DNA of 32,000 bases. Source: Saccharolobus solfataricus. Its GTDB lineage: Archaea > Thermoproteota > Thermoprotei_A > Sulfolobales > Sulfolobaceae. The DNA is taken from positions 2,430,001-2,462,000 of the forward strand of contig NZ_LT549890.1 in assembly GCF_900079115.1 (NCBI RefSeq). Reading direction: 5' to 3'. Position 1 is the stretch's first letter. Each line of letters opens with the position of its first letter. The notes under the pieces are model-generated. The model saw nothing but the letters and a program-made list of their open reading frames with translations, did no database searches and was not told the origin of the DNA. Position numbers and translations under genes: made by a program. This document shows, in pieces, positions 229 through 29,596 of the stretch.

Positions 229-600
229 ATGCCTTTAATAGTAGGTCTAATAGGTTCTGTTATAGCCTTTATAGTAGCGTGGATAGTGGTTTCAATACCC
301 ACGTGGATAGCTGGAAAAATAGTTACACCAAGAACTGCCACGTTTGGTAGAGCAATGTTGGCAACGTTAATTGGAGTAATAGTTTATGCAATTTTCACTG
401 CATTATTCTCACTTATATCTCCAATAATTGGAGTAATAATAGGATTTATAGCATTTCTAGGAGTATACAAGGTAGTCTTTAACACTGGCTGGTTACAAGC
501 GTTAGGTATAGCAATTTTAGCAATAATAGTTGCATTCATAATACTATTTATCCTAGGGCTAATAGGGATTGCATTGCCTCATTTAGGTCCTTTCAAGTAG
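229..600 (+). CDS. small integral membrane protein (about 4 TM helices), function unknown
   Basis: A 123-aa ORF that is almost entirely hydrophobic (IVGLIGSVIAFIVAWIVV, LATLIGVIVYAIFTALF, IIGVIIGFIAFLGV, ILAIIVAFIILFILGLIGI). No family was recognised. Confidence 0.6.
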   Translation: MPLIVGLIGSVIAFIVAWIVVSIPTWIAGKIVTPRTATFGRAMLATLIGVIVYAIFTALFSLISPIIGVIIGFIAFLGVYKVVFNTGWLQALGIAILAIIVAFIILFILGLIGIALPHLGPFK

Positions 601-1094
601 AACTCAAAGTAATTTTTTCTTTTTAGTTCAAAAGGAAATCTTTTAGATACCAGGTAAATAATCCCATCATCAGCTCTTATTTCCTCTGCGTATCCTAAAT
701 CGTAAGCCATAGCAGCCATTGCACACAATGCAGCATCCACATAATCCTTAATTTCATGTAAGTCTTTCCAATTCAAACCTACAATCTTCATGGAAGATGT
801 TGGATGAGTCTCAATTACATTATATAATTTTTCCTTCAATTGGATAGCCCTTTGCACGAGGGTTTTCATGAAGGATGGAGGCAATACCCTCAGTTTTCTT
901 TTTATCATTTCCTTATCTACATTTCTAAAACCGTTGTGATAAGAAAGAGGAGAATCTATGGCAGTAATTTTCGCTACCTTACAACTTTCAATAATTTCCT
1001 CGTTTGTTACTAGTTCGATGATTTTTATCTCGTTGTCTATGAGTATTGCTACTGCAGTCTTTCTTCTTACTGCCAGATCGATTCCACAATACAT
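579..1094 (-). CDS. DUF429-like predicted nuclease (RNase H-like fold)
   Basis: A 171-aa ORF with N-terminal MYCGIDLA, then AIDSPLSY, and a C-terminal DAALCAMAA. This is the pattern I associate with DUF429/COG2410 proteins. It overlaps the previous gene by 22 nt in convergent orientation. Confidence 0.6.
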
Positions 1095-2639: not shown

Positions 2640-2910
2640 AGGAGGGTTTAGACTTCATAGGATTTCACGATATTTAATATCAATCCTCAGCTCTTGGACT
2701 TCACTGAAGTCATGGACAAACCTATATAGAACACCGCACATCTTTAGCATTTTCAGCACTAGCTCGTCGGGGTATTTGCCCCATTGGCTAGCGCTTCACT
2801 GTGAGAAGCTATCATGAAAAGCATATAAACTTTACAGTTTGTCTGAACTGATGACAGAAGAAAGGCAAGCCTCGCCCCTTCTAGAGGCAGGGAGGGGTCA
2901 GAATGGCGTT
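2640..2910 (+). ncRNA. candidate structured non-coding RNA of unknown class (strand tentative)
   Basis: No ORF longer than about 20 codons on either strand. Stacked hairpins are present: 2659-2687 (AGGAUU/AAUCCU plus GAUAU/AUAUC), 2697-2711, 2759-2791 (CUAGC/GCUAG plus GGGG/CCCC), 2793-2809 and 2875-2897. The last has two G-U pairs that become C-A mismatches on the minus strand, which hints at the plus strand. Confidence 0.3.
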
Positions 2911-2977
2911 GAGTAAGATAATGCCCTTAACTAAGGGGTTTAGTAAATTTTATATTCTTAAAATACTATTGCATTCT

Positions 2978-3427
2978 GTGACCTACTGGTTAGTACCAAT
3001 ACAAGAGGACATGTGGGACGTAATTAGAGATAAAGGAATATATGGATACAAAGAAAACCTAGAGGAGTTCATAAAAGAAGGTGACTACATTATTATATAC
3101 GTTAGTAAGTACTATGCGAAACGATATGGAGGAAAGATTGTCGGTATCGTAAAAGTGCTTTCAAACTGGTATGAGGATCAGACGCCAATATATCCAGAGG
3201 AGACAGTGAGAAATAAAGGAATATACATTTATAGGGTTAAAGTTGAGCCTGTGGTAATTGGAGAGTGTGATATGAAAAAAATTTTAGATAAGATTAGATT
3301 TATTGAAGATAAGGGACAAATAGCTAAATACCTTAGAAATGCTCCAGCAAACCTCAAGAGACCTATCCCAGAAAGTGATGCTAAAATAGTAGAAGAGTGT
3401 CTTAAGGAATCACTGCTCAATATCTAA
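2978..3427 (+). CDS. EVE/PUA-like domain protein (UPF0310 family)
   Basis: The tracked ORF starts at 2903. However, an in-frame GTG at 2978 gives TYWLVPIQEDMWDVIRDKGIYGY, the usual N-terminus of UPF0310/EVE proteins, and a TATA-like tttatattcttaaaat sits about 25 nt upstream. The 25 extra codons look like run-in. Confidence 0.85.
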   Translation: MTYWLVPIQEDMWDVIRDKGIYGYKENLEEFIKEGDYIIIYVSKYYAKRYGGKIVGIVKVLSNWYEDQTPIYPEETVRNKGIYIYRVKVEPVVIGECDMKKILDKIRFIEDKGQIAKYLRNAPANLKRPIPESDAKIVEECLKESLLNI

Positions 3428-8661: not shown

Positions 8662-11577
8662 TTAAAACTTTGGTCTGGACCTTCTTATCGTTAAGAACAA
8701 TATTGCTATGATTATAATTGCTATTAGTATTATGACACTCCCTACAAAACTCCCATTTATGTTCTTTACGAAAGTTTCAGTTATTGGTTGATTTACGGTT
8801 ATTGCTACACCATTACTAACGTTATAGGAGCCCTCCCACTTGCCTTGTTCATATATGGGCACGGATTGGGTTAACGTTATTACGCTTCCTCTTGGTAACC
8901 ATTCTGAATTTCCATCTATTGTTACTAAATATTCTATTATTGGTTTAACATTAATACTAGTTGGTTGGGTTATATTTATTAAATACGAAGAAGTATTATA
9001 GAATATTCTTTCATTATTGCTTATATTTACGTATTTAGGTATTAATAAAGTTTGCCCAGCTGGTACCCAAATTTCACTAGTATTTAGGGTCCTATTTGCT
9101 ATTGTAATCAGTATTGGCTCATTCACAGTAACCAGATACTCCTTTAACGTCGTTACTTTCACAGTTAAGCTTCTATTTACTGTAAAGTTAAATGGTAATA
9201 TGGATAATATTATATATCTTGTATTGTTGGAGATATAATACGTCATGTTTATGAACGAAATAGGAGTTACCGCATTATACCATCCTGGACTAAAAGTAAC
9301 TAAGGTTGAATTGATTAAGGCTTTTATTGGTATGTTGGAAATTAAGTTTATATAGTATTGTAGGACATAGTGCAGTTTTAACGAGACTGGCCCATTAACT
9401 ATTATAACATTATTGGAAGTTGGCTTTCCATTTAGACTGATATTGACTAAGTTTTGTCTTTCAGTTTGATTAATATACCAAATTGTATATAATTCAATTT
9501 CAGTATCATTATTATACCATCCGTTACTTAAGGTGGTGTTTTTACCGTTGAAGAGTACATAGACTGGGTAGTTACTACTAACGTTTAAGAAATATTGAGG
9601 TAGTGTAATTATAGTTATATTAATTGGTTGGAGTAATGTAAAGTTTGAATATGGTAAAACTTTTTCCATGAGAAATCTTGCAGTACTATTTATATAGTAT
9701 GTGATGTTCTCTATCTGTATTCTACTTCCAGCGTTGAACCAAGAGTATTTTTGTAACGTCTCGTTAGTACCATTGACTAGTGCGTAAACTGGTATCTTGG
9801 AATAGACAATCAGAGGGTATTGCTTTACCGTTATGATTGATATTGTGATTGGATTTTCAACCGTAATGTTTCTGGAAGGTAAAATATTAGATATTACATA
9901 CCTATATTCGTTATTTTGTCCATAATATGTTATGTTTTCTATATTAATATTCGTACCTATATTATACCAATTACTGGTTAATGTACTATTAGTTCCATTA
10001 ATAAGTGCATAAATGGGTATCTGTGATTTTACAATAATATAATATTGTATTAACTCATTTGCAGTTATTGTATAAGACATATTTACGAGGATTTTATTTG
10101 CGGGTAAGATCTTAGTAATTACCGCTCTAGTTTCATTGCTTTGATAAAACGTTATATTATAAATTTGTATAACCGTGTTCTTATTGTACCACCCAGAGGA
10201 AATTGATGCGTTTGTCCCATTTATTGATCCGAAAAGTGGAATTAATGAGTTAACGTGCACGTAGTATTGTAAAATATAAGTTATTGTGAGGTTAGTGGGG
10301 GTAATTAATGTAAATTCATTAGTTGGGTATGAAAATACCATTATTCTTGAATCATTGGGATAATATGTAAACGGGCTAATTACCACTTTTATAGAGGCGT
10401 TATACCATCCACTACTCAGAGTTGTATAAATTCCATTGATACTTGCGTTTACTGGAATGTTTATATTAATGAAATACTGAAGTTGATAATATACTGTTAT
10501 GTTTCCACTCCTGTTTGCTAAAATTGGAGTAGAATTTAAGCTAACAATCCTGCTTAACCCGTTTAAGACAATAGATGGTAAACTTATATTAGAATTAGCA
10601 TTCACGAAAATCAAGGAAGGCAATCTTGCGATCTCTTTAAGACCGTCGGAAAAATATGAAACGTTTATAGGTATATTAAAGCTTCCTCCAATTACCTTAT
10701 AATTTAAGAATATTGGATATAAATTACCAGTTATAAAGTAATATCCATTTGAGGCTGTAAATGCTCCTATATAGGACAAATTATAGAAGGTGTAGTTATT
10801 TGAAACCGAATATGCAATCTCGTCAGTCGCTATACCTTGTGGAGGGGAGGTTAAATATATTTCATTAATACCTAAAGTGAAGCTAGTTGTTAAATATTGT
10901 AATCTATATATAACTCCCAGTTCTCCTCCAAAATATGCCTTAAGATGATACCATTCTGTCATTAATCCAGTTATGAAACCATGTAAAAAGTTAAGATCCG
11001 TAACGATACTGGATGCACCGTTAGCGTTAACAATTGCAATTGCTTTGGCACCAGTGCTATTATCATAAGCGGAAAGTATTATATTGCCATTTGATATTTC
11101 GATTTCTAGCATCATCTCATCCCCGCTATTCACAATTCCATTGAAGTTTAGCAGAACTGGTCCTATTACCGGATCCCCGCTACTATTCCAGACCATGTAG
11201 ATCATATGAAATCCTGGGTCAAATGAACCATTTGTATAAGGCCAATTATAGGCTACACCAACTTGATACCACCAGTCATTATTGGTTATTGCATTTAACA
11301 AATACGCTGGACCGTAACCAGAATCACTAGTTTGTGCAATTACTTTTACATAAATTACTAAATTTGTACTAACTGGATATGCATTTAACGCCATGAATAG
11401 CTGCTCGTCGTAGAAAGTTATCCCTGGGTCATTAGAATTTAACGTGGATAATGGTAGTGGTTTAGTATTACTATGAGATACTGGGGTTAATGGAATAAGA
11501 GATATAATTAAAAGGATTGTTATAATAATTACTTTCCACTCCATATTTTTTGTCTTTATACAAAACCTTTTAAGCAT
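8662..11577 (-). CDS. large secreted, heavily N-glycosylated, C-terminally membrane-anchored protein: thermopsin-like N-terminal region plus eight tandem beta-repeats
   Basis: The maximal ORF is 990 aa (to 11634). Likely starts are the ATG at 11577 (MLKRFCIKTKNMEWKVIIITILLIISLIPL, signal-peptide-like) or at 11544. There are about 44 N-x-S/T sequons by hand count. The C-terminus is VGSVIILIAIIIIAILFLTI followed by RRSRPKF. TSPPQGIATDEIAY and WWYQVGVAY...IYMVWN resemble thermopsin (peptidase A5) segments from memory. Confidence 0.85.
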   Translation of the reverse strand: MLKRFCIKTKNMEWKVIIITILLIISLIPLTPVSHSNTKPLPLSTLNSNDPGITFYDEQLFMALNAYPVSTNLVIYVKVIAQTSDSGYGPAYLLNAITNNDWWYQVGVAYNWPYTNGSFDPGFHMIYMVWNSSGDPVIGPVLLNFNGIVNSGDEMMLEIEISNGNIILSAYDNSTGAKAIAIVNANGASSIVTDLNFLHGFITGLMTEWYHLKAYFGGELGVIYRLQYLTTSFTLGINEIYLTSPPQGIATDEIAYSVSNNYTFYNLSYIGAFTASNGYYFITGNLYPIFLNYKVIGGSFNIPINVSYFSDGLKEIARLPSLIFVNANSNISLPSIVLNGLSRIVSLNSTPILANRSGNITVYYQLQYFININIPVNASINGIYTTLSSGWYNASIKVVISPFTYYPNDSRIMVFSYPTNEFTLITPTNLTITYILQYYVHVNSLIPLFGSINGTNASISSGWYNKNTVIQIYNITFYQSNETRAVITKILPANKILVNMSYTITANELIQYYIIVKSQIPIYALINGTNSTLTSNWYNIGTNINIENITYYGQNNEYRYVISNILPSRNITVENPITISIITVKQYPLIVYSKIPVYALVNGTNETLQKYSWFNAGSRIQIENITYYINSTARFLMEKVLPYSNFTLLQPINITIITLPQYFLNVSSNYPVYVLFNGKNTTLSNGWYNNDTEIELYTIWYINQTERQNLVNISLNGKPTSNNVIIVNGPVSLKLHYVLQYYINLISNIPIKALINSTLVTFSPGWYNAVTPISFINMTYYISNNTRYIILSILPFNFTVNRSLTVKVTTLKEYLVTVNEPILITIANRTLNTSEIWVPAGQTLLIPKYVNISNNERIFYNTSSYLINITQPTSINVKPIIEYLVTIDGNSEWLPRGSVITLTQSVPIYEQGKWEGSYNVSNGVAITVNQPITETFVKNINGSFVGSVIILIAIIIIAILFLTIRRSRPKF
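8761..10485 (-). repeat. eight tandem in-frame repeats of 69-79 aa within the glycoprotein gene
   Basis: Repeat units start at aa 386, 456, 530, 605, 680, 759, 832 and 901. The shared pattern is QYY(I/L)xVxSxIP(I/V)YALINGTNxTLxSGWYNxGTxIxIxNITYYxxNxxRYVIxxILPxxNxTVxxPIxIxxxxxK. Confidence 0.8.
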
Positions 11578-11693
11578 TTTTCCAACTGAACTTTCTTCAG
11601 TAGTACTATATATTAAAATCATAATATTAGTCAATCATTTCCATTATCATAAGATATATATATTCCGCTTGAGAATAAAGAATGTGGTGTTGA

Positions 11694-12598: not shown

Positions 12599-14089
12599 TT
12601 ATGTATTTTTTCTTCCACTTAGTGATATTGAGAATGCTAGAATAACCATAAGGAGGGTAATGATAATATCTTTTGTTATAGCATAAAATATTATGGTTAT
12701 AACCAATATCATTTGAGGAATATAATTAGTTATTGCACTACCTTTCCTACTGCTTTGTATGTTTATCAGCTCTTGCTGTTGTGAATATGATAATAGAAAG
12801 CTCCTAAATCTATTCCAAATTCCATTAACTAGTTCTCTTACTTGTTCTATAACAACTTTCGTTGTATACCCTTCTTCTTCTAAAAAAGTTATAGATGATT
12901 TGACAAAGTCAAAATCTTTATCTATTTCTCTACATGTCCCATCTAAAACGTTAACCATTCTAAAAGGCAGAACAAGTTTAGATGGCATTCTAAGTGGAAA
13001 CTTAAAGAATACTTGATCAGCCAGTTTCATAAAATCTTCCAGCTCTAATTCACTAACTTCTATTCCTTGCATTGCTTGCATGAAAAGCCTCAATCCCTTC
13101 GCTAATACCCTCCTATCCGCGAAAGGCTGTATTGCCCCTAACTCGTCTAGTACCCTTACTAGTGAATCTGCATCCATTCTAATCATTGCCACATATGCCC
13201 TAATCAATAGATTTCTAGTCTTTTCATCTATTTTTCCAGACATTCCAAAGTCGTAGAGTACCAAATTCCCTTGCTCGTCAACCGCTATATTACCAGGGTG
13301 AGGATCTGCATGAAAATAGTCCTTATTAAGCAACATATACATGAACAATCTAAATACTCTATATGCCAATATTCTGTTATCAACTATCTTTTTTGCCTCT
13401 TCGCTTGTAACTTTATACCCTTTAATATACTCCATCACTAAAACTCTTTTAGTAGCCTTTATTATTGAAGGTATTCTTAAGGACGGATAATCTGACAATT
13501 CCTCTTTGATCTTATTTAAATAAAAGGCTTCCTTAGTATAATCCATTTCTTCAAATATTCTTCTGGAAAATTCTTCTAGGAATACTTTTATTATTTCGAT
13601 GAATGATTCATCAAATACAAATCTAAGGAGTGGCAACAATTTCTTTACTACTTGAATATCTTCATTTACAGTTTCCTTTATTCCAGGTCTATTTACCTTA
13701 ATAGCAACGATCTTTCCATTATATTCTCCTAGATAGACTTGACCTAAAGACGCTGAAGACAGTTCTTTTAAAATTTTTACACTATTGCCGAGTTCCTCAT
13801 CGATAATTTTACTTACTTGGCTAAATGGAGCAGGTGGGACTTCATCTTGTAATCTGGCTAATTCTTTAATATACGTTTCCGGCATAATGTCAGGTCTAAC
13901 TGAAAGAATTTGTCCGAACTTGATGAATGTGGGACCTAGTTCAATTAGCGTGTCAACAAATTTCTTAGCCTCTTCTGCCATCTCTTTTTCATCGATTGGA
14001 ATTTCCTTTAGGATTTTATTTCTAAACTCTCTATACGCTAGTACTCTAGGGGCCAATTTGAAAAACACTTCCAGTAATCTTCTAATCAC
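12599..14089 (-). CDS. ABC1/UbiB-family atypical protein kinase with C-terminal TM helices
   Basis: 496 aa. LGPTFIKFGQILSVRPD, ASLGQVY, AIKV, HADPHPGNI and YDFG are ABC1/aarF kinase motifs. The C-terminus is hydrophobic. Confidence 0.88.
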   Translation of the reverse strand: MIRRLLEVFFKLAPRVLAYREFRNKILKEIPIDEKEMAEEAKKFVDTLIELGPTFIKFGQILSVRPDIMPETYIKELARLQDEVPPAPFSQVSKIIDEELGNSVKILKELSSASLGQVYLGEYNGKIVAIKVNRPGIKETVNEDIQVVKKLLPLLRFVFDESFIEIIKVFLEEFSRRIFEEMDYTKEAFYLNKIKEELSDYPSLRIPSIIKATKRVLVMEYIKGYKVTSEEAKKIVDNRILAYRVFRLFMYMLLNKDYFHADPHPGNIAVDEQGNLVLYDFGMSGKIDEKTRNLLIRAYVAMIRMDADSLVRVLDELGAIQPFADRRVLAKGLRLFMQAMQGIEVSELELEDFMKLADQVFFKFPLRMPSKLVLPFRMVNVLDGTCREIDKDFDFVKSSITFLEEEGYTTKVVIEQVRELVNGIWNRFRSFLLSYSQQQELINIQSSRKGSAITNYIPQMILVITIIFYAITKDIIITLLMVILAFSISLSGRKNT

Positions 14090-14308
14090 AACTATAATAT
14101 AGTAAAAAGGAAGTATTTGTACCTATTCTAAGTTGTTAGAGTGCAGTAATAAAGTTCTAAATAAATTTTTCTTAATAGTATTAAAGATTAGTTAGCTGTA
14201 AATAATGTAAGAATGTTGAACTTAGAGGGGCAGATAAAATCTTATTATCGTTCATTTTTACCGTCTATTTTAGGAAGAATTTAATAGTTTTGTTAGTTAT
14301 AGATATAC

Positions 14309-15574
14309 ATGAAAATACTAATAATTGCCCCCTTAACTGAGGTATCGGAAGAAGAAAATGAGATCAGACCGATAGAAGTTACAAATTGGTCAAATTCACC
14401 AGTAGGAATTAGCTCCAAGTATTCTTTTTTAGCCGAAAAGAAGTTCCTTGAAGAAGAAAGGCATGAGGTTAAAATTTTAACTCTAGTCCCGACCGAAATA
14501 AGAAAGAATCTTAACGTTAAATTCAGTAACTATAATGAGCTAGTCAGTAATATTTTGGAGGCTCTAAAGTTCGGTAATGATAATATCGCAGTTGAGGTGA
14601 TACCCTTTGAGGATTCAGTAAGTTTGGGTACTTCCCTATTCTTCTCTTATTTGAAAATTTATTATGCTATAAAGACTTTCTTACCTAGTTTAATAATTTT
14701 AGATGTATCACACTCTAGTTCTTCCTTTTCCACATTAGTTTTAACAGCGTTAGATATAGCGATAACTGATTCACTTCTCACCCAACAAGTTGAAAATTAT
14801 ATTTACGCAAAAGTAAGTAAAAGGAACGATTCTATACAATTAATTAGTCATATGTTTAAGAATATGTATAGTATTAAATTATCTGAATATTTCTTAAGGG
14901 AGATGAAGATAATGAAATCGGAAAACCAGGCTAATTTACCTCAGTTTGTAGGAAGGGCTGAATTTAGAAGGCTTGGTTTTTGTATAGAAAATTGTTACCC
15001 TCTAGTTGTTCTTCATGTTCTGGATGGAATGGACTTAGAGAAACTGGTTAGTGAGGAAAAGATTATGGAGATAGTTGTTAACAATTTAGAGATCAAGGAT
15101 GGTAAATTAATACAGAATGTCGAGTTATTAGAGGGCGCGACGTATTATGTCCTTGCTACACACTTGGTAAAGAGGTATAAGGTTAAAAAACCATTTAGTG
15201 TTGATAATGTGAGGAATATTCTAAATTTAACTTCCCCAACTTGCAGGCGAATTTCCAATCAGATCATAGACGAAATGATGATAGAGTTGAACTACCTCCT
15301 AAGACATTTAGGATTGAGAGAAGGTGAGTATAGCTTAGAGCAAATATCTAATTTATTAAAACAACCTTTAACTGAGATTATACGAAAAGAAGAGAGCATT
15401 GGTGATATATTAAGTAGATATAAGCGTGAATGTGGAAGTATTAATTTAAGCGGAATTGGTTTAGACCCTGGTGCGACTATTATAAAGATAGATAGTGACA
15501 AGATTTACGTATATTACGCTGATGAATGTGAAGATAGTGTGTTAAGTAAAGTCAAAGATCAGATGGGCGATTAG
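14309..15574 (+). CDS. hypothetical protein; possible degenerate Csx1/CARF (DxTHG-family)-like protein
   Basis: A 421-aa ORF with a TATA-like aatttaatag about 26 nt upstream. Three features are co-linear with CRISPR-associated Csx1/DxTHG proteins from memory. The N-terminus is MKILIIAPL (Rossmann beta1-like). LDVSHSS at aa 131-137 sits where DxTHG is found. The C-terminal SGIGLD...IYVYY sits where RNxxAHxGLE...IxLxY is found. Both the catalytic R and H are absent. That it is a CDS is likely; the family call is weak. Confidence 0.5.
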   Translation: MKILIIAPLTEVSEEENEIRPIEVTNWSNSPVGISSKYSFLAEKKFLEEERHEVKILTLVPTEIRKNLNVKFSNYNELVSNILEALKFGNDNIAVEVIPFEDSVSLGTSLFFSYLKIYYAIKTFLPSLIILDVSHSSSSFSTLVLTALDIAITDSLLTQQVENYIYAKVSKRNDSIQLISHMFKNMYSIKLSEYFLREMKIMKSENQANLPQFVGRAEFRRLGFCIENCYPLVVLHVLDGMDLEKLVSEEKIMEIVVNNLEIKDGKLIQNVELLEGATYYVLATHLVKRYKVKKPFSVDNVRNILNLTSPTCRRISNQIIDEMMIELNYLLRHLGLREGEYSLEQISNLLKQPLTEIIRKEESIGDILSRYKRECGSINLSGIGLDPGATIIKIDSDKIYVYYADECEDSVLSKVKDQMGD

Positions 15575-16152
15575 CAGAAGTCCAATTTTACGCAAATTCT
15601 ATCATTATCGCAACTTTCATCTAATTCGATTATTTGAAAGTTTTCCTTAAGAGTTTCCGTTATTATGCGAAGGAATTTAATTATATTTGGGTTAGTTGAG
15701 ACATTGATCATCTCAAATTTTGTTTTTCCGTCTGCAACTAGTTTTATGTTATCCCCTAGAATATACGCTAGTCCTCTAAGGACATTCTCTAAAATTGATC
15801 TCTCTTTACAATTGCTTTCAAAACTCTCTAAAAGTAGTAAGCCTGTATCTTGCGCCTCATTAGTTATTATTGATAGCAACGAATTAGCTATTTCCTTGTA
15901 AATTTTTTCATCGTGGATACTTGAGATAAGATTATAGAATAGATTAGATGCTATAAGGTATTTAATTCCAAGTACTGCATTTCTCGTACTAGGATTAGTT
16001 ATATCAATATCTTCCATTATGAGTTCAGATGCGCTCTGTATTATTTTGTCTGTGCAATTGTATGATTTCTTATTGTCTAGCTTTATACAAATCTCATCCA
16101 ATTTCTCCCAAATATCACTTCTAATTCTCCAAGGTCGAGATTGTAAAGTCAT
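15571..16152 (-). CDS. hypothetical protein with a possible N-terminal ribbon-helix-helix-like segment
   Basis: 193 aa with a TATA-like tctatatat about 24 nt upstream of the ATG. The N-terminal RPWRIRSDIWEKLDEICIKLDNKKSYNCTDKIIQSASELI fits a strand-helix-turn-helix-like pattern. No family was recognised. Confidence 0.6.
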   Translation of the reverse strand: MTLQSRPWRIRSDIWEKLDEICIKLDNKKSYNCTDKIIQSASELIMEDIDITNPSTRNAVLGIKYLIASNLFYNLISSIHDEKIYKEIANSLLSIITNEAQDTGLLLLESFESNCKERSILENVLRGLAYILGDNIKLVADGKTKFEMINVSTNPNIIKFLRIITETLKENFQIIELDESCDNDRICVKLDFC

Positions 16153-16198
16153 GTGTTTAAATATGATATATAGAGTAATTATGGGTTTTGCATATCAG

Positions 16199-17272
16199 TT
16201 ATGAGAATATTCTCTTAGTCATTCTTATTTTAAAGTAAAAACGATTATTTTTTTCTATTTCTGGTTCATCTAAAACATGTCTTATAAAACTAGAGAGGTT
16301 TTCATCGAAATCAGTTAAACCAGAAATAATAAATTCTTGATTATTTATCTTTATCAGCTTAATTCTAGGATCAATAAGAAGGGTAAAGATGTCAAGGTTC
16401 TTATTAATTATTTCCTTATCTATCAGTCTATAATTAATGTATTCAATTCCTCTTATATAAGGGTATAAAATATGGCCTGTTTTTCTAAGTTCCAGGAATA
16501 AGGTGTAGATATCATTTAATCTATCTAAAATATTATATAGGGGTAAATTATTTTTGAATAGAGTATCATATATTGTAAGCAGTTGATACATAGACCAATC
16601 GTTTATGAGTTTATCATATTTATCATTATTTTTGAGATTGTTATGAGTGAACTTGGTTATTATTTGGTTTCTCTTACTAATTACGCTACTTTCAACTCTT
16701 ACTAAATGATGGTTTCGGTTTCCAAAATCTATAAGAGATTGATATGGTGCGATTATCTCTATATTATCTTTAGAACTATTTATCTTTCCTATGCCTAATA
16801 CCGTAACAATATTTTCCAAAAAATTCTGGACATAATCTCTTAATTTTTTATTTATATTATTTAAACTGATTTTATAAATTAAAGTATTTCTATTCGTAAC
16901 TACCAAGGGGGTATATGGAGATGGAATTAAATACTCCAGAAGATGTTTTAGATGTATTGGATTCATGAAGTTGAAGTACTTCTTAAATAGATATCCTATA
17001 ATTTCATCACCAGAATACACATCAACTTTATCCTCTATATATGAAGAATGTATAAACGAGAAATTCTCATGAATTAGAATATAGGGTATAAGAAAGCAGA
17101 GATCGATTCCCAATAAGGAGTCATCCTTTTCCATCATGTTCATCATAGTCATGAGAGCATTGGTGTAGAAGTCTTTCTCATCCTCTATTCCATACATCCT
17201 CATAATGACCTCTGCTCTTTCTCTGAGACTTTCACTAATTGGCGTTAGTCTAATGTCGGCAGATCTTGGCAC
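16199..17272 (-). CDS. hypothetical protein with a possible N-terminal ribbon-helix-helix-like segment
   Basis: 357 aa with a GTG start. ADIRLTPISESLRERAEVIMRMYGIEDEKDFYTNALMTMM fits an RHH-like pattern. The protein is very Asn/Lys/Ile/Tyr-rich. No family was recognised. Confidence 0.65.
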   Translation of the reverse strand: MPRSADIRLTPISESLRERAEVIMRMYGIEDEKDFYTNALMTMMNMMEKDDSLLGIDLCFLIPYILIHENFSFIHSSYIEDKVDVYSGDEIIGYLFKKYFNFMNPIHLKHLLEYLIPSPYTPLVVTNRNTLIYKISLNNINKKLRDYVQNFLENIVTVLGIGKINSSKDNIEIIAPYQSLIDFGNRNHHLVRVESSVISKRNQIITKFTHNNLKNNDKYDKLINDWSMYQLLTIYDTLFKNNLPLYNILDRLNDIYTLFLELRKTGHILYPYIRGIEYINYRLIDKEIINKNLDIFTLLIDPRIKLIKINNQEFIISGLTDFDENLSSFIRHVLDEPEIEKNNRFYFKIRMTKRIFS

Positions 17273-17293
17273 TATATAAAGTAAGAATAGAGG

Positions 17294-17300
17294 TTTATAA
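17294..17300 (-). promoter_or_regulatory. TATA box (TTATAAA) for the 16199-17272 gene
   Basis: Centred 25 nt upstream of the GTG at 17272 on the minus strand. This is consistent with a leaderless transcript and supports the GTG start. Confidence 0.4.
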
Positions 17301-17346
17301 GGTTTCTAAGACCTTTCATATAATATTACGATACACTCGAGGAAAC

Positions 17347-17700
17347 GTTTAATCATTAGAGTAAAATAAGGCGTTCTGAATTATGCAGTTGTCAGCTGTC
17401 TTCGATGAACTACCCCACCCTCATGACGGGGCATCCTCACCTCATGATTCTCCGCTTCTTAGAACAATCTCGATCCCCATAGCGGAGGTTCCATCAAACC
17501 ATTCTGCAATGCCCCGTATGGAAGAGGGGTTATGGAGGGTTTGCTCTACATAGGCATTAAGGGGAGTCCCACGAACCCAGCACTTCCAGCCAAGGTCGGA
17601 TTCATTTTATCACCTTTTTGATAATAAACTTTTCCGGGGTTATCCATCTCCTATCTGACGGAAGGAGGACTTTCGCTCCCTCAACCACGATAAGTTAAAC
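17347..17700 (-). ncRNA. rnpB: probable RNase P RNA
   Basis: The minus strand carries three conserved motifs in the expected order. GAAAGUCC (CR-I-like) is at 17667-17674. AGAGCAAACC, identical to the J11/12 CR-II stretch of bacterial M1 RNA as I remember it, is at 17538-17547. CAGAACGCCUUAU (CR-V-like) is at 17366-17378. A terminal helix pairs 17690-17700 with 17347-17356. A 9-bp helix ACGGGGCAU/AUGCCCCGU (17509-17517 with 17426-17434) encloses a CUCCGCU/AGCGGAG hairpin. G+C is clearly above the surrounding DNA, and there is no ORF. Confidence 0.6.
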
Positions 17701-17919
17701 TGTGAAATTTGTAAACCTAATAATACGTGGATTGTATAGTATATGCATCGAATGCGGACACTTACCCATAAATAAAGTGGTACTAAAAATAAGTAGGTGA
17801 TTTTTCAGCACCAACGAGTAAGTGTTAATTGGTTTTTATTCATAGACGAAGAATGAACGGGTGTTCAGTAATAAATCTTATTATATAGGGTTGCCCGTAA
17901 AATCGATGAAACTTAAGTG

Positions 17920-19161
17920 CTAATGATTAGATATAGATTCATGAGAATTCAATGAAGCCAAACCCCTATTAGCTACATAGACTATTGTCATTAGGTAGTC
18001 CCTGAGTTCTCTAGTTATGAGGAAATTTCTCCTTATGTGTTCTCTGGCATTAGTACCAAGTCTCCTCCTTATCTCCTCATTCCTAATTAAGTATATTATG
18101 TAATGCGATGCGCCTTGTGGGCTATTAACTAAGAATCCAGTAATTCCATTTATCACTTGTAAGGGAATTCCTCCAGTGTTTCCACCTATTACTGGTTTTC
18201 TCTTCCACATGGCCTCACTAACAGTAAGTCCAAAGCCTTCCTTTATAGACTTCTGCATAACTACCGTTGATGCTGTTTGAAATACATTTATTTCCAAATC
18301 ACTATAAGGCGGTAACATTAGTAAATGTATATCCTTATCTCCTTCAGAGGCCTTAACTACTTCACTATAAACCTTCTCACCTTCTGGATCATCGGTGGCT
18401 GGGCTTCCTACATATAATAATTGTATGTCAACATGCCTTTTCGCTAACTTATAAGCCTGTATGACACCTAAAGGATCTTTAGCGTAATCAAATCTGGACA
18501 CTTGAGTTATTAATGGCTTTTCAAGATTAATACCAAACTTATATAATATTCTCAATATAGTAGTCTCAGACATATCCCTATTCTTTATACTTAATGGATC
18601 TATTGATGGTGGTATTACGAATTGCGGAATTTCGATATCATCTCTCCCAAACGAGGGAACAGAGATTATCATACTATCATATTTGGAGATATACTTCCGT
18701 AAGAAGTTCCACACTGGTGGATATGGATTTGAAATGTCAATGTGACATCGCCAAATCCACTTATTACTATTACCTTTTTTGAATTTTATAAGCCCCGCCG
18801 GTTGGGGATCATGTATAAACATTATATCGTAATCTAACGGAATTTCAGACAAGTTTATCTCTTGCCATTTATCATATATTTTAAAGTATTCATCTGGTAT
18901 ATTTCCAGTTCCATTTTGTAATGAATTGTGAAAGGATTTGGTTACGTTAAAGAACTCATTATCTCCTTTTATAACCTTCCAATCAACATTAAGACCTAAC
19001 TCTTTCATTAATGGTAGCATTCTATTTAATATCTCAGCTACTCCACCTCCAGCCTTAGTAGAGTTTACATGAAGTATTGATAAATCCTTAATTTTCTCCG
19101 CTATCTTAAAGATAGCGTCAAGCTCATGCTCTCCTATAAATTCCACGTATTTCTCAATCAT
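17920..19161 (-). CDS. treT: trehalose glycosyltransferring synthase (GT4 family)
   Basis: Nearly co-linear with Thermococcales/Thermoproteus TreT from memory: HVNST..GGGVAEIL, FFNVTK.FHN.LQ, HDPQPA, WRCHID, PPSIDPLS.KN, ITQVSRFD, DDPEG, SI.EGFGLTV.EAMWK.KPVIG. I prefer the ATG at 19161, which overlaps the upstream TGA as ATGA and has GGTGG 9 nt upstream. The tracked GTG is at 19173. Confidence 0.88.
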   Translation of the reverse strand: MIEKYVEFIGEHELDAIFKIAEKIKDLSILHVNSTKAGGGVAEILNRMLPLMKELGLNVDWKVIKGDNEFFNVTKSFHNSLQNGTGNIPDEYFKIYDKWQEINLSEIPLDYDIMFIHDPQPAGLIKFKKGNSNKWIWRCHIDISNPYPPVWNFLRKYISKYDSMIISVPSFGRDDIEIPQFVIPPSIDPLSIKNRDMSETTILRILYKFGINLEKPLITQVSRFDYAKDPLGVIQAYKLAKRHVDIQLLYVGSPATDDPEGEKVYSEVVKASEGDKDIHLLMLPPYSDLEINVFQTASTVVMQKSIKEGFGLTVSEAMWKRKPVIGGNTGGIPLQVINGITGFLVNSPQGASHYIIYLIRNEEIRRRLGTNAREHIRRNFLITRELRDYLMTIVYVANRGLASLNSHESISNH

Positions 19162-28648: not shown

Positions 28649-29596
28649 CTATATCTTAACACTTTTATGTACTCCATCATCCATTAAGGCTACACAGTAA
28701 CTTGCTATTCTAGCCAATTCCCTTGCCAGTTCTCTGCATTCTATCTTGCTTCCATACACTATCTTGTTTATTTCTTTCATACTTTCCCTTATACTCCTTA
28801 CGTGATCTATATTTTCGTCGAAAAATACTTCTCGAGATTTCTCAAACATATTTACAATGATTTTAATTATGGAATTCAGTTCTTTATCGTTGGATGTGTT
28901 TCCACATTCTGTTATGGCTAGGGATGCGGTTTTTATATGAGATAGCATTCTTCCCATGTCACGCATTGCTATTGCATAGAGTATTAGATCTCTAGTTGGC
29001 AAGCCTTTTACTACAAATTCCTCCTCTTTCTGTGAGACTAGTGCTATTTCCCTTATTACTGAATTGTATAATTTGTTTAACTCTTCAGCACGGTTTTTCA
29101 AATCTATAGCCATCTCCTTACTAGGATTTTCAATTATCTTTTCCAGATCCTTTAGTAGTACTAGTAATTTACTAGAGAAAGTTTTCATTCTTTCGACCAC
29201 GTTAGTATTAACATCATCTTGAACTTTGAACGTAATATAGTTAAAGCTTTCACTCTCAATTGTTAAACCTGGTAAATATAATTGCAAATTTTTTAGCTCA
29301 TCCTTTATAGGTGCTGATATTACGGACTTCGATTTTATCTCTATTTCTGAAATCCCTTGCATATAGTATACCGTTATCAAGTATTTGGTAGTTTCTAGAT
29401 CAATAAGATCAAGGTCAATTATCTTTCTAGTAATATAATCCCTTATAGGTTTTATTAATAGCTCTCCATTCTTTTCTATAACAAAAACCTCACTTTTAGC
29501 ATCTAAGTTATTTCTCCTAACCCATTCTGGAGGTAATGTTATTATGTAACTGCCACCTTTAATTTTCTGAATTCTTCTCCTTAGATTCTTCTCCAT
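28649..29596 (-). CDS. AbrB/SpoVT-domain plus PhoU-like-repeat regulator
   Basis: 315 aa. The N-terminal IQKIKGGSYIITLPPEWVRRNNL is a swapped-hairpin AbrB motif. The rest is helical with two PhoU-like repeats (COG0704-like archaeal architecture). Confidence 0.7.
   Translation of the reverse strand: MEKNLRRRIQKIKGGSYIITLPPEWVRRNNLDAKSEVFVIEKNGELLIKPIRDYITRKIIDLDLIDLETTKYLITVYYMQGISEIEIKSKSVISAPIKDELKNLQLYLPGLTIESESFNYITFKVQDDVNTNVVERMKTFSSKLLVLLKDLEKIIENPSKEMAIDLKNRAEELNKLYNSVIREIALVSQKEEEFVVKGLPTRDLILYAIAMRDMGRMLSHIKTASLAITECGNTSNDKELNSIIKIIVNMFEKSREVFFDENIDHVRSIRESMKEINKIVYGSKIECRELARELARIASYCVALMDDGVHKSVKI

Follow-up and report, generated by a model that had tools for sequence, protein, structure and literature searches.

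A predicted nuclease-dead Csx1-family protein and two clade-restricted orphan proteins encoded outside cas loci in Saccharolobus solfataricus

A block of three protein-coding genes was analyzed in a 32,000-nucleotide stretch of the chromosome of Saccharolobus solfataricus (NZ_LT549890.1, positions 2,430,001 to 2,462,000 of the forward strand), which is referred to as the window and to whose first nucleotide all coordinates are relative. The first gene encodes P1, which is classified from its sequence as a highly diverged, stand-alone CARF-HEPN protein of the Csx1 family (a Csx1 paralogue), and the other two encode the orphan proteins P2 and P3. P1 is read here as a conserved, non-nucleolytic receptor of cyclic tetra-adenylate (cA4), that is, a Csx1 with a dead HEPN domain, and P2 and P3 as its possible but not necessary partners; a probability of about one half was assigned to this reading. 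The P1 sequence is identical in CP033235.1 and in many other assemblies. An earlier reading of the DNA, made from the sequence alone and called the sequence-only reading below, had listed the three open reading frames (ORFs), and their coordinates, strands, and lengths were confirmed. The features of the block are as follows.

14309..15574, plus strand: P1, ORF of 421 amino acids (GenBank AAK42727.1), diverged Csx1-family protein with CARF, middle, and HEPN-derived domains
15571..16152, minus strand: P2, ORF of 193 amino acids, clade-restricted orphan protein
16199..17272, minus strand: P3, ORF of 357 amino acids with a GTG start, clade-restricted orphan protein
14702..14710, plus strand: CARF signature D132-V-S134 of P1 (D-x-[ST] after strand 4), from the family alignment
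15437..15460, plus strand: degenerate HEPN catalytic motif S377-I-N-L-S-G-I-G384 of P1, from the family alignment
14280..14287, plus strand: putative TATA-like box TTTAATAG, seen in the sequence with its centre about 26 nt 5' of the P1 ATG, a leaderless-type spacing
17294..17300, minus strand: putative TATA-like box TTATAAA, seen in the sequence 22-28 nt 5' of the P3 GTG
15571..15574, both strands: 4-bp overlap of the P1 and P2 stop codons, TAG at 15572-15574 (plus) against TAA at 15571-15573 (minus)

The family of P1 was assigned by profile comparison. The PADLOC profile PDLC01954 ('CARF9--CARF_HEPN') was matched end to end over residues 1-421 with an E-value of 6e-251 (830 bits), the sister profile PDLC01957 was matched at 2e-40, and the generic Csx1/Csm6 profiles of PADLOC were matched weakly. 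Pfam and NCBIfam scans of P1 returned no match, the protein being too diverged for the Pfam Csx1 models, and nothing was found in single-sequence and profile searches of PDB. The family is small: a word-indexed search of 5.8 billion proteins gave 5 clusters, and an exhaustive hidden Markov model search of 1.84 billion representatives with a profile of the P1 clade gave only 13 representatives. Among 13 aligned full-length family members, Pfam Csx1_CARF (PF22230) was matched by seven (best E-value 2e-26) and Csx1_HEPN (PF09455) by five (best E-value 7.5e-21), and P1 is related over its full length, at the profile level, to proteins carrying both domains. D132 is invariant in the 13 members and position 134 is S or T in every one of them; in the relative P0024 the same columns hold the canonical signature D-T-T-H-G-I-N. 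The C-terminus of P1 is collinear with that of the relatives matching PF09455, with C375, G384, Y403, and C407 as anchors. The Csx1/CARF-like layout noticed in the sequence-only reading was borne out by the PADLOC match and by these profile links to Csx1 proteins. A literature search by locus tag, for 'CARF9', and for 'inactivated HEPN' found nothing.

The catalytic motif of the HEPN domain was located in the family alignment by the invariant C375 and the near-invariant G384. At this position the relatives P0022 and P0024 carry E-R-N-F-[SM]-A-H (R-N-F-x-A-H-x-G), and P1 and four orthologous clusters carry G-S-I-N-L-S-G-I-G or its equivalents. The segment from C375 to G384 contains no Arg, Lys, or His in any of the five P1-clade sequences, and no conserved R-x(4-6)-H was found elsewhere in them. 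Because the catalytic Arg and His are absent, P1 is predicted, by the defining catalytic criterion, not to be an active HEPN RNase. The earlier description of P1 as a sensor lacking an obvious effector was right in substance, in that an HEPN-derived domain is present and its catalytic residues are gone. Three further relatives (P0019, P0020, and P0023) have kept the His and lost the Arg, and the relatives P0018, P0019, P0022, and P0024 are all encoded outside cas loci. Since the subfamily is habitually found outside cas loci and the HEPN residues have been lost in several branches, a repeated shift from nuclease to pure receptor is suggested. A nuclease-dead, stand-alone, and diverged P1 is a new form of Csx1, although its lineage is already present in the computational CARF catalogue. 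The gene for P0019 (L023, 11537-12357, AP031322.1) lies far from cas genes and about 280 bp upstream of a nucleotidyltransferase/HepT-like toxin-antitoxin pair.

In S. solfataricus, both cA4-producing type III systems and cA4-responsive CARF proteins are established (PMC8699464; bioRxiv 10.1101/380436); the CARF genes listed in PMC8699464 are sso1389, 1393, 1397, 1444, 1445, and 2081, and the P1 gene is not among them. By membership of its family, P1 would bind cA4 produced by type III CRISPR complexes whose genes lie at other places in the genome, and would form the usual Csx1-type dimer through the HEPN-derived domain. Since RNA cutting appears to be lost, P1 would act as a non-nucleolytic receptor. 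It might dampen signalling by buffering cA4 or by degrading it slowly as a ring nuclease, or it might serve as a ligand-dependent binding partner of other proteins. Compared with Csx1 itself (Sso1389 and S. islandicus Csx1, a CARF-HTH-HEPN RNase activated by cA4), P1 has the same overall length, a collinear domain order, and the CARF D-x-[ST] signature, but it lacks the HEPN R-x4-H dyad and is not beside any cas gene. The PADLOC catalogue entry matched by P1 does not flag the loss of catalytic residues in its label. The proposed model for a P1 that acts on its ligand is the Crn1 ring nucleases of the same organisms (Sso2081 and Sso1393; Sis0811 and Sis0455 of S. islandicus), which PMC9638899 and bioRxiv 10.1101/380436 present as CARF proteins without a nuclease effector that act on cA4 without RNA cutting. 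In PMC9638899 they are described as small CARF or CARF-HTH proteins, whereas P1 has 421 amino acids and a full HEPN-derived domain. The sequence relationship between P1 and Crn1 found here is at most that of the CARF superfamily, and a ring-nuclease role of P1 is putative.

The remoteness from cas genes that had been remarked on earlier was confirmed: no cas gene and no CRISPR array was found anywhere in the 32-kb window, nor in the orthologous loci. Gene order was compared among S. solfataricus, S. islandicus, S. shibatae, and sister 'Sulfolobus' lineages, and the order HSP20-UbiB-(MscS in some)-P1-P2-P3-TreT-DUF5752-DUF4382 was the same in every lineage checked that has any gene of the trio, which answers positively the question whether the trio is conserved as a unit. 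Accession numbers of the trio are consecutive in about 10 S. islandicus and S. shibatae genomes. The trio is absent from a more distantly related Sulfolobaceae genome (L014), where unrelated genes follow TreT. No hit was confirmed when the GTDB genome collection was scanned with the P1 alignment. A second scan, for which the neighbour DUF5752 served as anchor, yielded just two distant Sulfolobaceae, the other of which (L013) was listed by ORF length only. Because neither scan recovered a Saccharolobus genome, absence from this collection is uninformative on the distribution of the trio. In the Sulfolobus sp. A20-like lineage (L005-L009), an MscS-channel gene is inserted between UbiB and P1, and 300-350 bp separates P2 and P3. 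In another lineage (L010-L012), an extra ORF of 167 amino acids with no family match lies directly upstream of P1 in the same orientation.

The stop codons of P1 and P2 do physically overlap, as had been read from the sequence. An identical 4-bp overlap was found in the gene-call coordinates of S. islandicus and, with its P1 fragment, of S. tengchongensis, and gaps of 9-42 bp take its place in more distant lineages. P2 and P3 would be expressed from a promoter or promoters of their own on the opposite strand. A TATA box at leaderless distance had been proposed for both minus-strand genes; this held for P3 and not for P2, where inspection of the sequence left the spacing ambiguous. When the promoter regions of P1, P2, and P3 were compared, no convincing operator-like repeat was found in common, and no palindromic operators were found upstream of P2 and P3.

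Substitution rates were estimated between S. solfataricus and S. islandicus as the ratio of nonsynonymous to synonymous substitutions (dN/dS), giving 0.133 for P1, 0.142 for P2, and 0.133 for P3, compared with 0.03 to 0.16 (median about 0.07) for neighbour genes. The HEPN-like third of P1 has a value of 0.133, equal to that of the whole protein. From these ratios of 0.13-0.14, P1, P2, and P3 are all maintained by purifying selection, and this includes the catalytically dead domain, on which such selection would fit a structural role, for example in dimerisation as known from Csx1/Csm6 dimers. Relative to three or four other lineages, the proteins of the trio are 33-63% identical and those of the flanking genes 70-93%, and the evolutionary rate of the trio is about double that of its flanks.

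Several points weigh against P1 being a cA4 receptor to which P2 and P3 are optional. Binding of cA4 is deduced from family membership only, and because P1 is too diverged for the Pfam Csx1 models its ligand pocket may have changed. In S. tengchongensis (CP146016.1; L017, 9687-11222), P1 is broken into three reading frames, with ORFs of 46, 166, and 179 amino acids and fragments identical to P0027, P0017, and P0016, beside intact P2 and P3 genes. A frameshift affects the C-terminal end of P1 in one metagenome contig (L026), though a sequencing error may account for it. From these two cases P1 appears to be dispensable in some lineages. The strict co-location of the genes in every genome having any of them, and the nearly equal divergence of P1, P2, and P3 (80%, 82%, and 80% identity, dN of about 0.10, dN/dS of 0.13-0.14), which sets them apart from the flanks, count on the same side and in favour of a closer association.

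Such an association would make the trio one signalling module, in which nuclease-dead P1 senses cA4 (or another nucleotide) through its CARF domain and signals onward by contact with the proteins P2 and P3. These would be the actual effectors or regulators, for instance by binding DNA or small molecules. This alternative was considered possible but rather unlikely. Besides co-location and equal rates, it agrees with the absence of P2 and P3 homologues outside the clade carrying this P1 lineage, and with the absence of P2/P3-like neighbours beside distant P1 relatives that have an intact HEPN motif (P0022 and P0024), which would fit an effector swap; this last argument is qualified by HEPN-degenerate relatives such as P0018 and P0019, which are also without such neighbours. 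However, the 20-kb neighbourhood is wholly syntenic in the clade, so that the adjacency counts as only one evolutionary observation. Since P1 and the P2 and P3 genes run towards each other, P1 is not co-transcribed with them, the promoters of the trio share no operator-like repeats, and P2 and P3 match no defence-system profile of PADLOC. Because P1 is broken in S. tengchongensis where P2 and P3 are intact, a dependence of P2 and P3 on P1 is doubtful. P2 and P3 are accordingly treated here as neighbours that may, but need not, work with the P1 receptor.

It was judged unlikely that the block is a decaying remnant of a defence locus, with P1 a Csx1 nearing loss and P2 and P3 left-over accessory genes under relaxed constraint. 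The loss of the HEPN catalytic residues, the P1 pseudogene of S. tengchongensis, the much faster divergence of the trio than of its flanks, and a dN/dS of 0.56 in the last 67 residues of P3 would be expected from decay, but clear purifying selection acts on all three genes and on the HEPN-like domain, and full-length ORFs persist across lineages down to 33-47% identity. Of the 'decayed defence island' proposed in the sequence-only reading, the dead nuclease site stood and the decay of the genes did not.

Homologues of P2 and P3 were detected solely in S. solfataricus, S. islandicus, S. shibatae, Sulfolobus sp. E5-1-F, S. tengchongensis, and a small number of metagenome lineages from hot springs. 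Single-sequence and profile searches with both proteins against Pfam, NCBIfam, PADLOC, PHROG, and PDB gave no match. At E-values up to 10, Pfam searches with all seven members of the P3 family found no NurA, LAGLIDADG, or ribbon-helix-helix (RHH) domain; one UniRef entry carries the name 'NurA domain-containing', and the assignment of P3 to NurA was rejected on this Pfam result. Four Cys residues (C22, C33, C115, and C181) are invariant in the P2 family. Residues L9, T10, S13, E14, L16, R17, R19, and A20 are conserved at the N-terminus of P3, which shows that its GTG start, or the equivalent start, is used.

AlphaFold2 models of P2 and P3 are of low confidence, with mean predicted local distance difference test (pLDDT) scores of 62.5 and 53, because the alignments are shallow. 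In the model of P2, five helices are followed by a C-terminal beta-beta-alpha-beta-beta arrangement, giving one predicted alpha-beta-beta-alpha-beta-beta unit, and the model of P3 has a helical N-terminus and two such units, one near residues 105-176 and the other near 293-350, whose pLDDT block means are about 56-84. Both proteins are thus predicted to share an architecture of an extended N-terminal segment with two helices, more helices, and one (P2) or two (P3) beta-hairpin/helix/beta-hairpin units. P3 may resemble a duplicated P2-like module by predicted secondary structure alone, as hhalign comparisons of P2 with P3 and with each half of P3 were not significant (E-values 0.04-0.4).

The fold search proposed with the sequence-only reading yielded weak, low-confidence leads for P2 and P3 and assigned no family. 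With Foldseek, neither model matched PDB or the viral structures of BFVD at an E-value of 0.001 or less, and the best leads for the two proteins had template modelling (TM) scores of 0.12-0.30 and E-values of about 0.01, with no support from sequence profiles. For P3 the top matches were single-chain LAGLIDADG proteins (I-LtrI, I-OnuI, and I-SmaMI; E-value about 0.01, TM-score below 0.2), whose secondary-structure order is followed by the two predicted units of P3, but the would-be acidic position at the helix end varies in the P3 family (D/S/S/T/S/D). For P2 they were H-NOX and TRAPP-Bet3, of the H-NOX/V4R/TRAPP-Bet3 fold (E-value 0.008, TM-score 0.27), which share with the P2 model the order of helices followed by beta-beta-alpha-beta-beta. 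P2 was rejected as an H-NOX heme sensor, its family having no invariant His for heme and the fold match being weak. These matches of predicted structures are leads only.

It was considered distinctly unlikely that P2 and P3 are RHH DNA-binding regulators, or a toxin-antitoxin-like pair, acting independently of P1. By eye, the P3 N-terminus (D-I-R-L-T-P-I-S-E-S-L-R-E-R-A...G-I-E-D-E-K-D-F-Y) shows a CopG-like strand-helix-loop-helix pattern, and AlphaFold2 places two helices after an extended N-terminus in both proteins (residues 11-26 and 32-49 of P3; 12-24 and 31-45 of P2). In these segments, however, pLDDT is 34-59 and no strand is modelled; no RHH family was found in Pfam and NCBIfam at E-values up to 1 for P2 or up to 10 for the seven P3 members, and no RHH chain was found in PDB profile searches at E-values up to 10. 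The proteins are also far above the typical size of RHH proteins, and the palindromic operators looked for upstream were not found. The predicted secondary structure would allow an RHH reading, but this reading has no support from any sequence test, and the RHH-like starts earlier attributed to P2 and P3 were not upheld.

Base composition was calculated along the window. The stretch of P2 and P3 contains its lowest-G+C 1-kb region (0.266, against 0.343 +/- 0.025), P1 is average for the window at 0.333, and the three 60-nt lines counted earlier by hand within 16261-16440 were confirmed at 31.7%, 21.7%, and 26.7% G+C. G+C at third codon positions (GC3) is 0.315 for P1, 0.284 for P2, and 0.279 for P3, compared with 0.285 +/- 0.024 in 16 neighbouring genes, and I, N, K, Y, and F together make up 0.42 of P3 compared with 0.32-0.33. 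Because GC3 equals that of the neighbours and P3 is rich in these residues, the low G+C of P2 and P3 reflects protein composition and not foreign origin; the low G+C suspected earlier is therefore real over these two genes, but codon usage is not foreign. No homologues of P1, P2, or P3 were found in IMG/VR viral contigs or, by tblastn, in PLSDB plasmids, and a PHROGs scan of the three proteins gave nothing meaningful. From the constant order across lineages, the host-like GC3, and these searches for viral and plasmid homologues, the block is concluded to have been inherited vertically as part of the chromosome of one clade, and it is not a mobile cassette or variable island.

The neighbour of P3 at 17273-17919 had been taken for the RNase P RNA gene. 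This candidate was rejected: Rfam gave no match at the gathering threshold in the whole window, at E-values up to 1 in 14000-18100, or at E-values up to 10 in 17273-17919, with nothing credible in the latter, and S. islandicus and the other lineages lack the stretch at this position. Its folding z-score is -0.96. Comparison with S. islandicus and four other lineages showed that about 600 bp (approximately 17363-17965) are an S. solfataricus-specific insertion between the P3 promoter and the 3' end of TreT. The insertion takes the place of about 23 bp and adds 12 codons to TreT, which has 413 amino acids in S. solfataricus and 399-401 in the other lineages; the extra C-terminal codons read into the insertion (17920-17965, minus strand). 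Two conjugative plasmids of S. islandicus, pHVE14 (NC_006425.1, 31457-31781; E-value 2e-31) and pARN4 (NC_006424.1, 25266-25596; E-value 4e-29), carry intergenic non-coding sequence that matches the core of the insertion (about 17400-17700, some 300 nt) at about 70% identity. By eye, the core was estimated to be much more G+C-rich than the 34% background, and an invariant TTTAACTTA box precedes it on the minus strand. In the RNAalifold consensus, 9 of 106 predicted pairs are kept through changes on both sides, with only two effectively independent sequences. The core may be an unclassified structured RNA, or a conserved plasmid element of another kind, and it is not part of the trio. At the distal end of the insertion (17907-17966), about 60 nt match at 82% a site beside a TnpB-family gene on the plasmid of S. 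islandicus Y.N.15.51 (NC_012624.1), and this match hints at the involvement of an IS200/IS605-type element. A recent arrival of the block itself as a viral or plasmid cassette was considered highly improbable, a virus- or plasmid-derived cassette having been one option of the sequence-only reading: the low G+C across P2 and P3 and the plasmid-related insertion adjoining P3 would favour it, but trio GC3 is identical to that of the neighbours, homologues were not found in IMG/VR, phage-derived families, or PLSDB, the core chromosomal position is constant across the clade, and an insertion present in S. solfataricus alone must have arrived later and independently of the trio.

Other genes of the window were annotated as follows. 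A UbiB/ABC1 kinase gene lies upstream of P1, as had been read earlier. In the same syntenic region, an ORF of 986 amino acids (8662-11622, minus strand) encodes a large uncharacterised protein with no Pfam match, which is 85% identical in S. islandicus (dN/dS 0.12) and 57-67% identical in more distant lineages. An ORF at 28649-29596 (minus strand) combines a MazE/AbrB-type N-terminus with a PhoU domain, one at 2903-3427 (plus strand) encodes an EVE-domain protein, and one at 579-1094 (minus strand) encodes a partial DUF429 protein.

S. solfataricus and S. islandicus, both genetically tractable, serve as the chief archaeal models of cA4 signalling by type III CRISPR systems. To our knowledge, the players of cA4 signalling known there (Csx1, Csa3, and the Crn1 ring nucleases) are all encoded in or near CRISPR-cas clusters. 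P1 would be an additional conserved, selected, and nuclease-dead CARF protein elsewhere on the chromosome, one that is missing from at least one inventory (PMC8699464), and it may play a part in buffering or breaking down cA4, or in an output that needs no nuclease. P2 and P3 represent two fast-evolving families without homologues beyond the sampled Saccharolobus and sister-Sulfolobus lineages. More speculatively, and with little expectation that it will hold, the trio could be a non-nucleolytic branch of cyclic-oligoadenylate signalling, in which an RNase-less Csx1, as a pure cA4 receptor, would relay to a new ligand- or DNA-binding fold in P2 and P3 and mount a response away from CRISPR-cas loci. 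If P2 and P3 are linked to P1, they would constitute a new effector type; otherwise they would be ordinary lineage-specific orphans.

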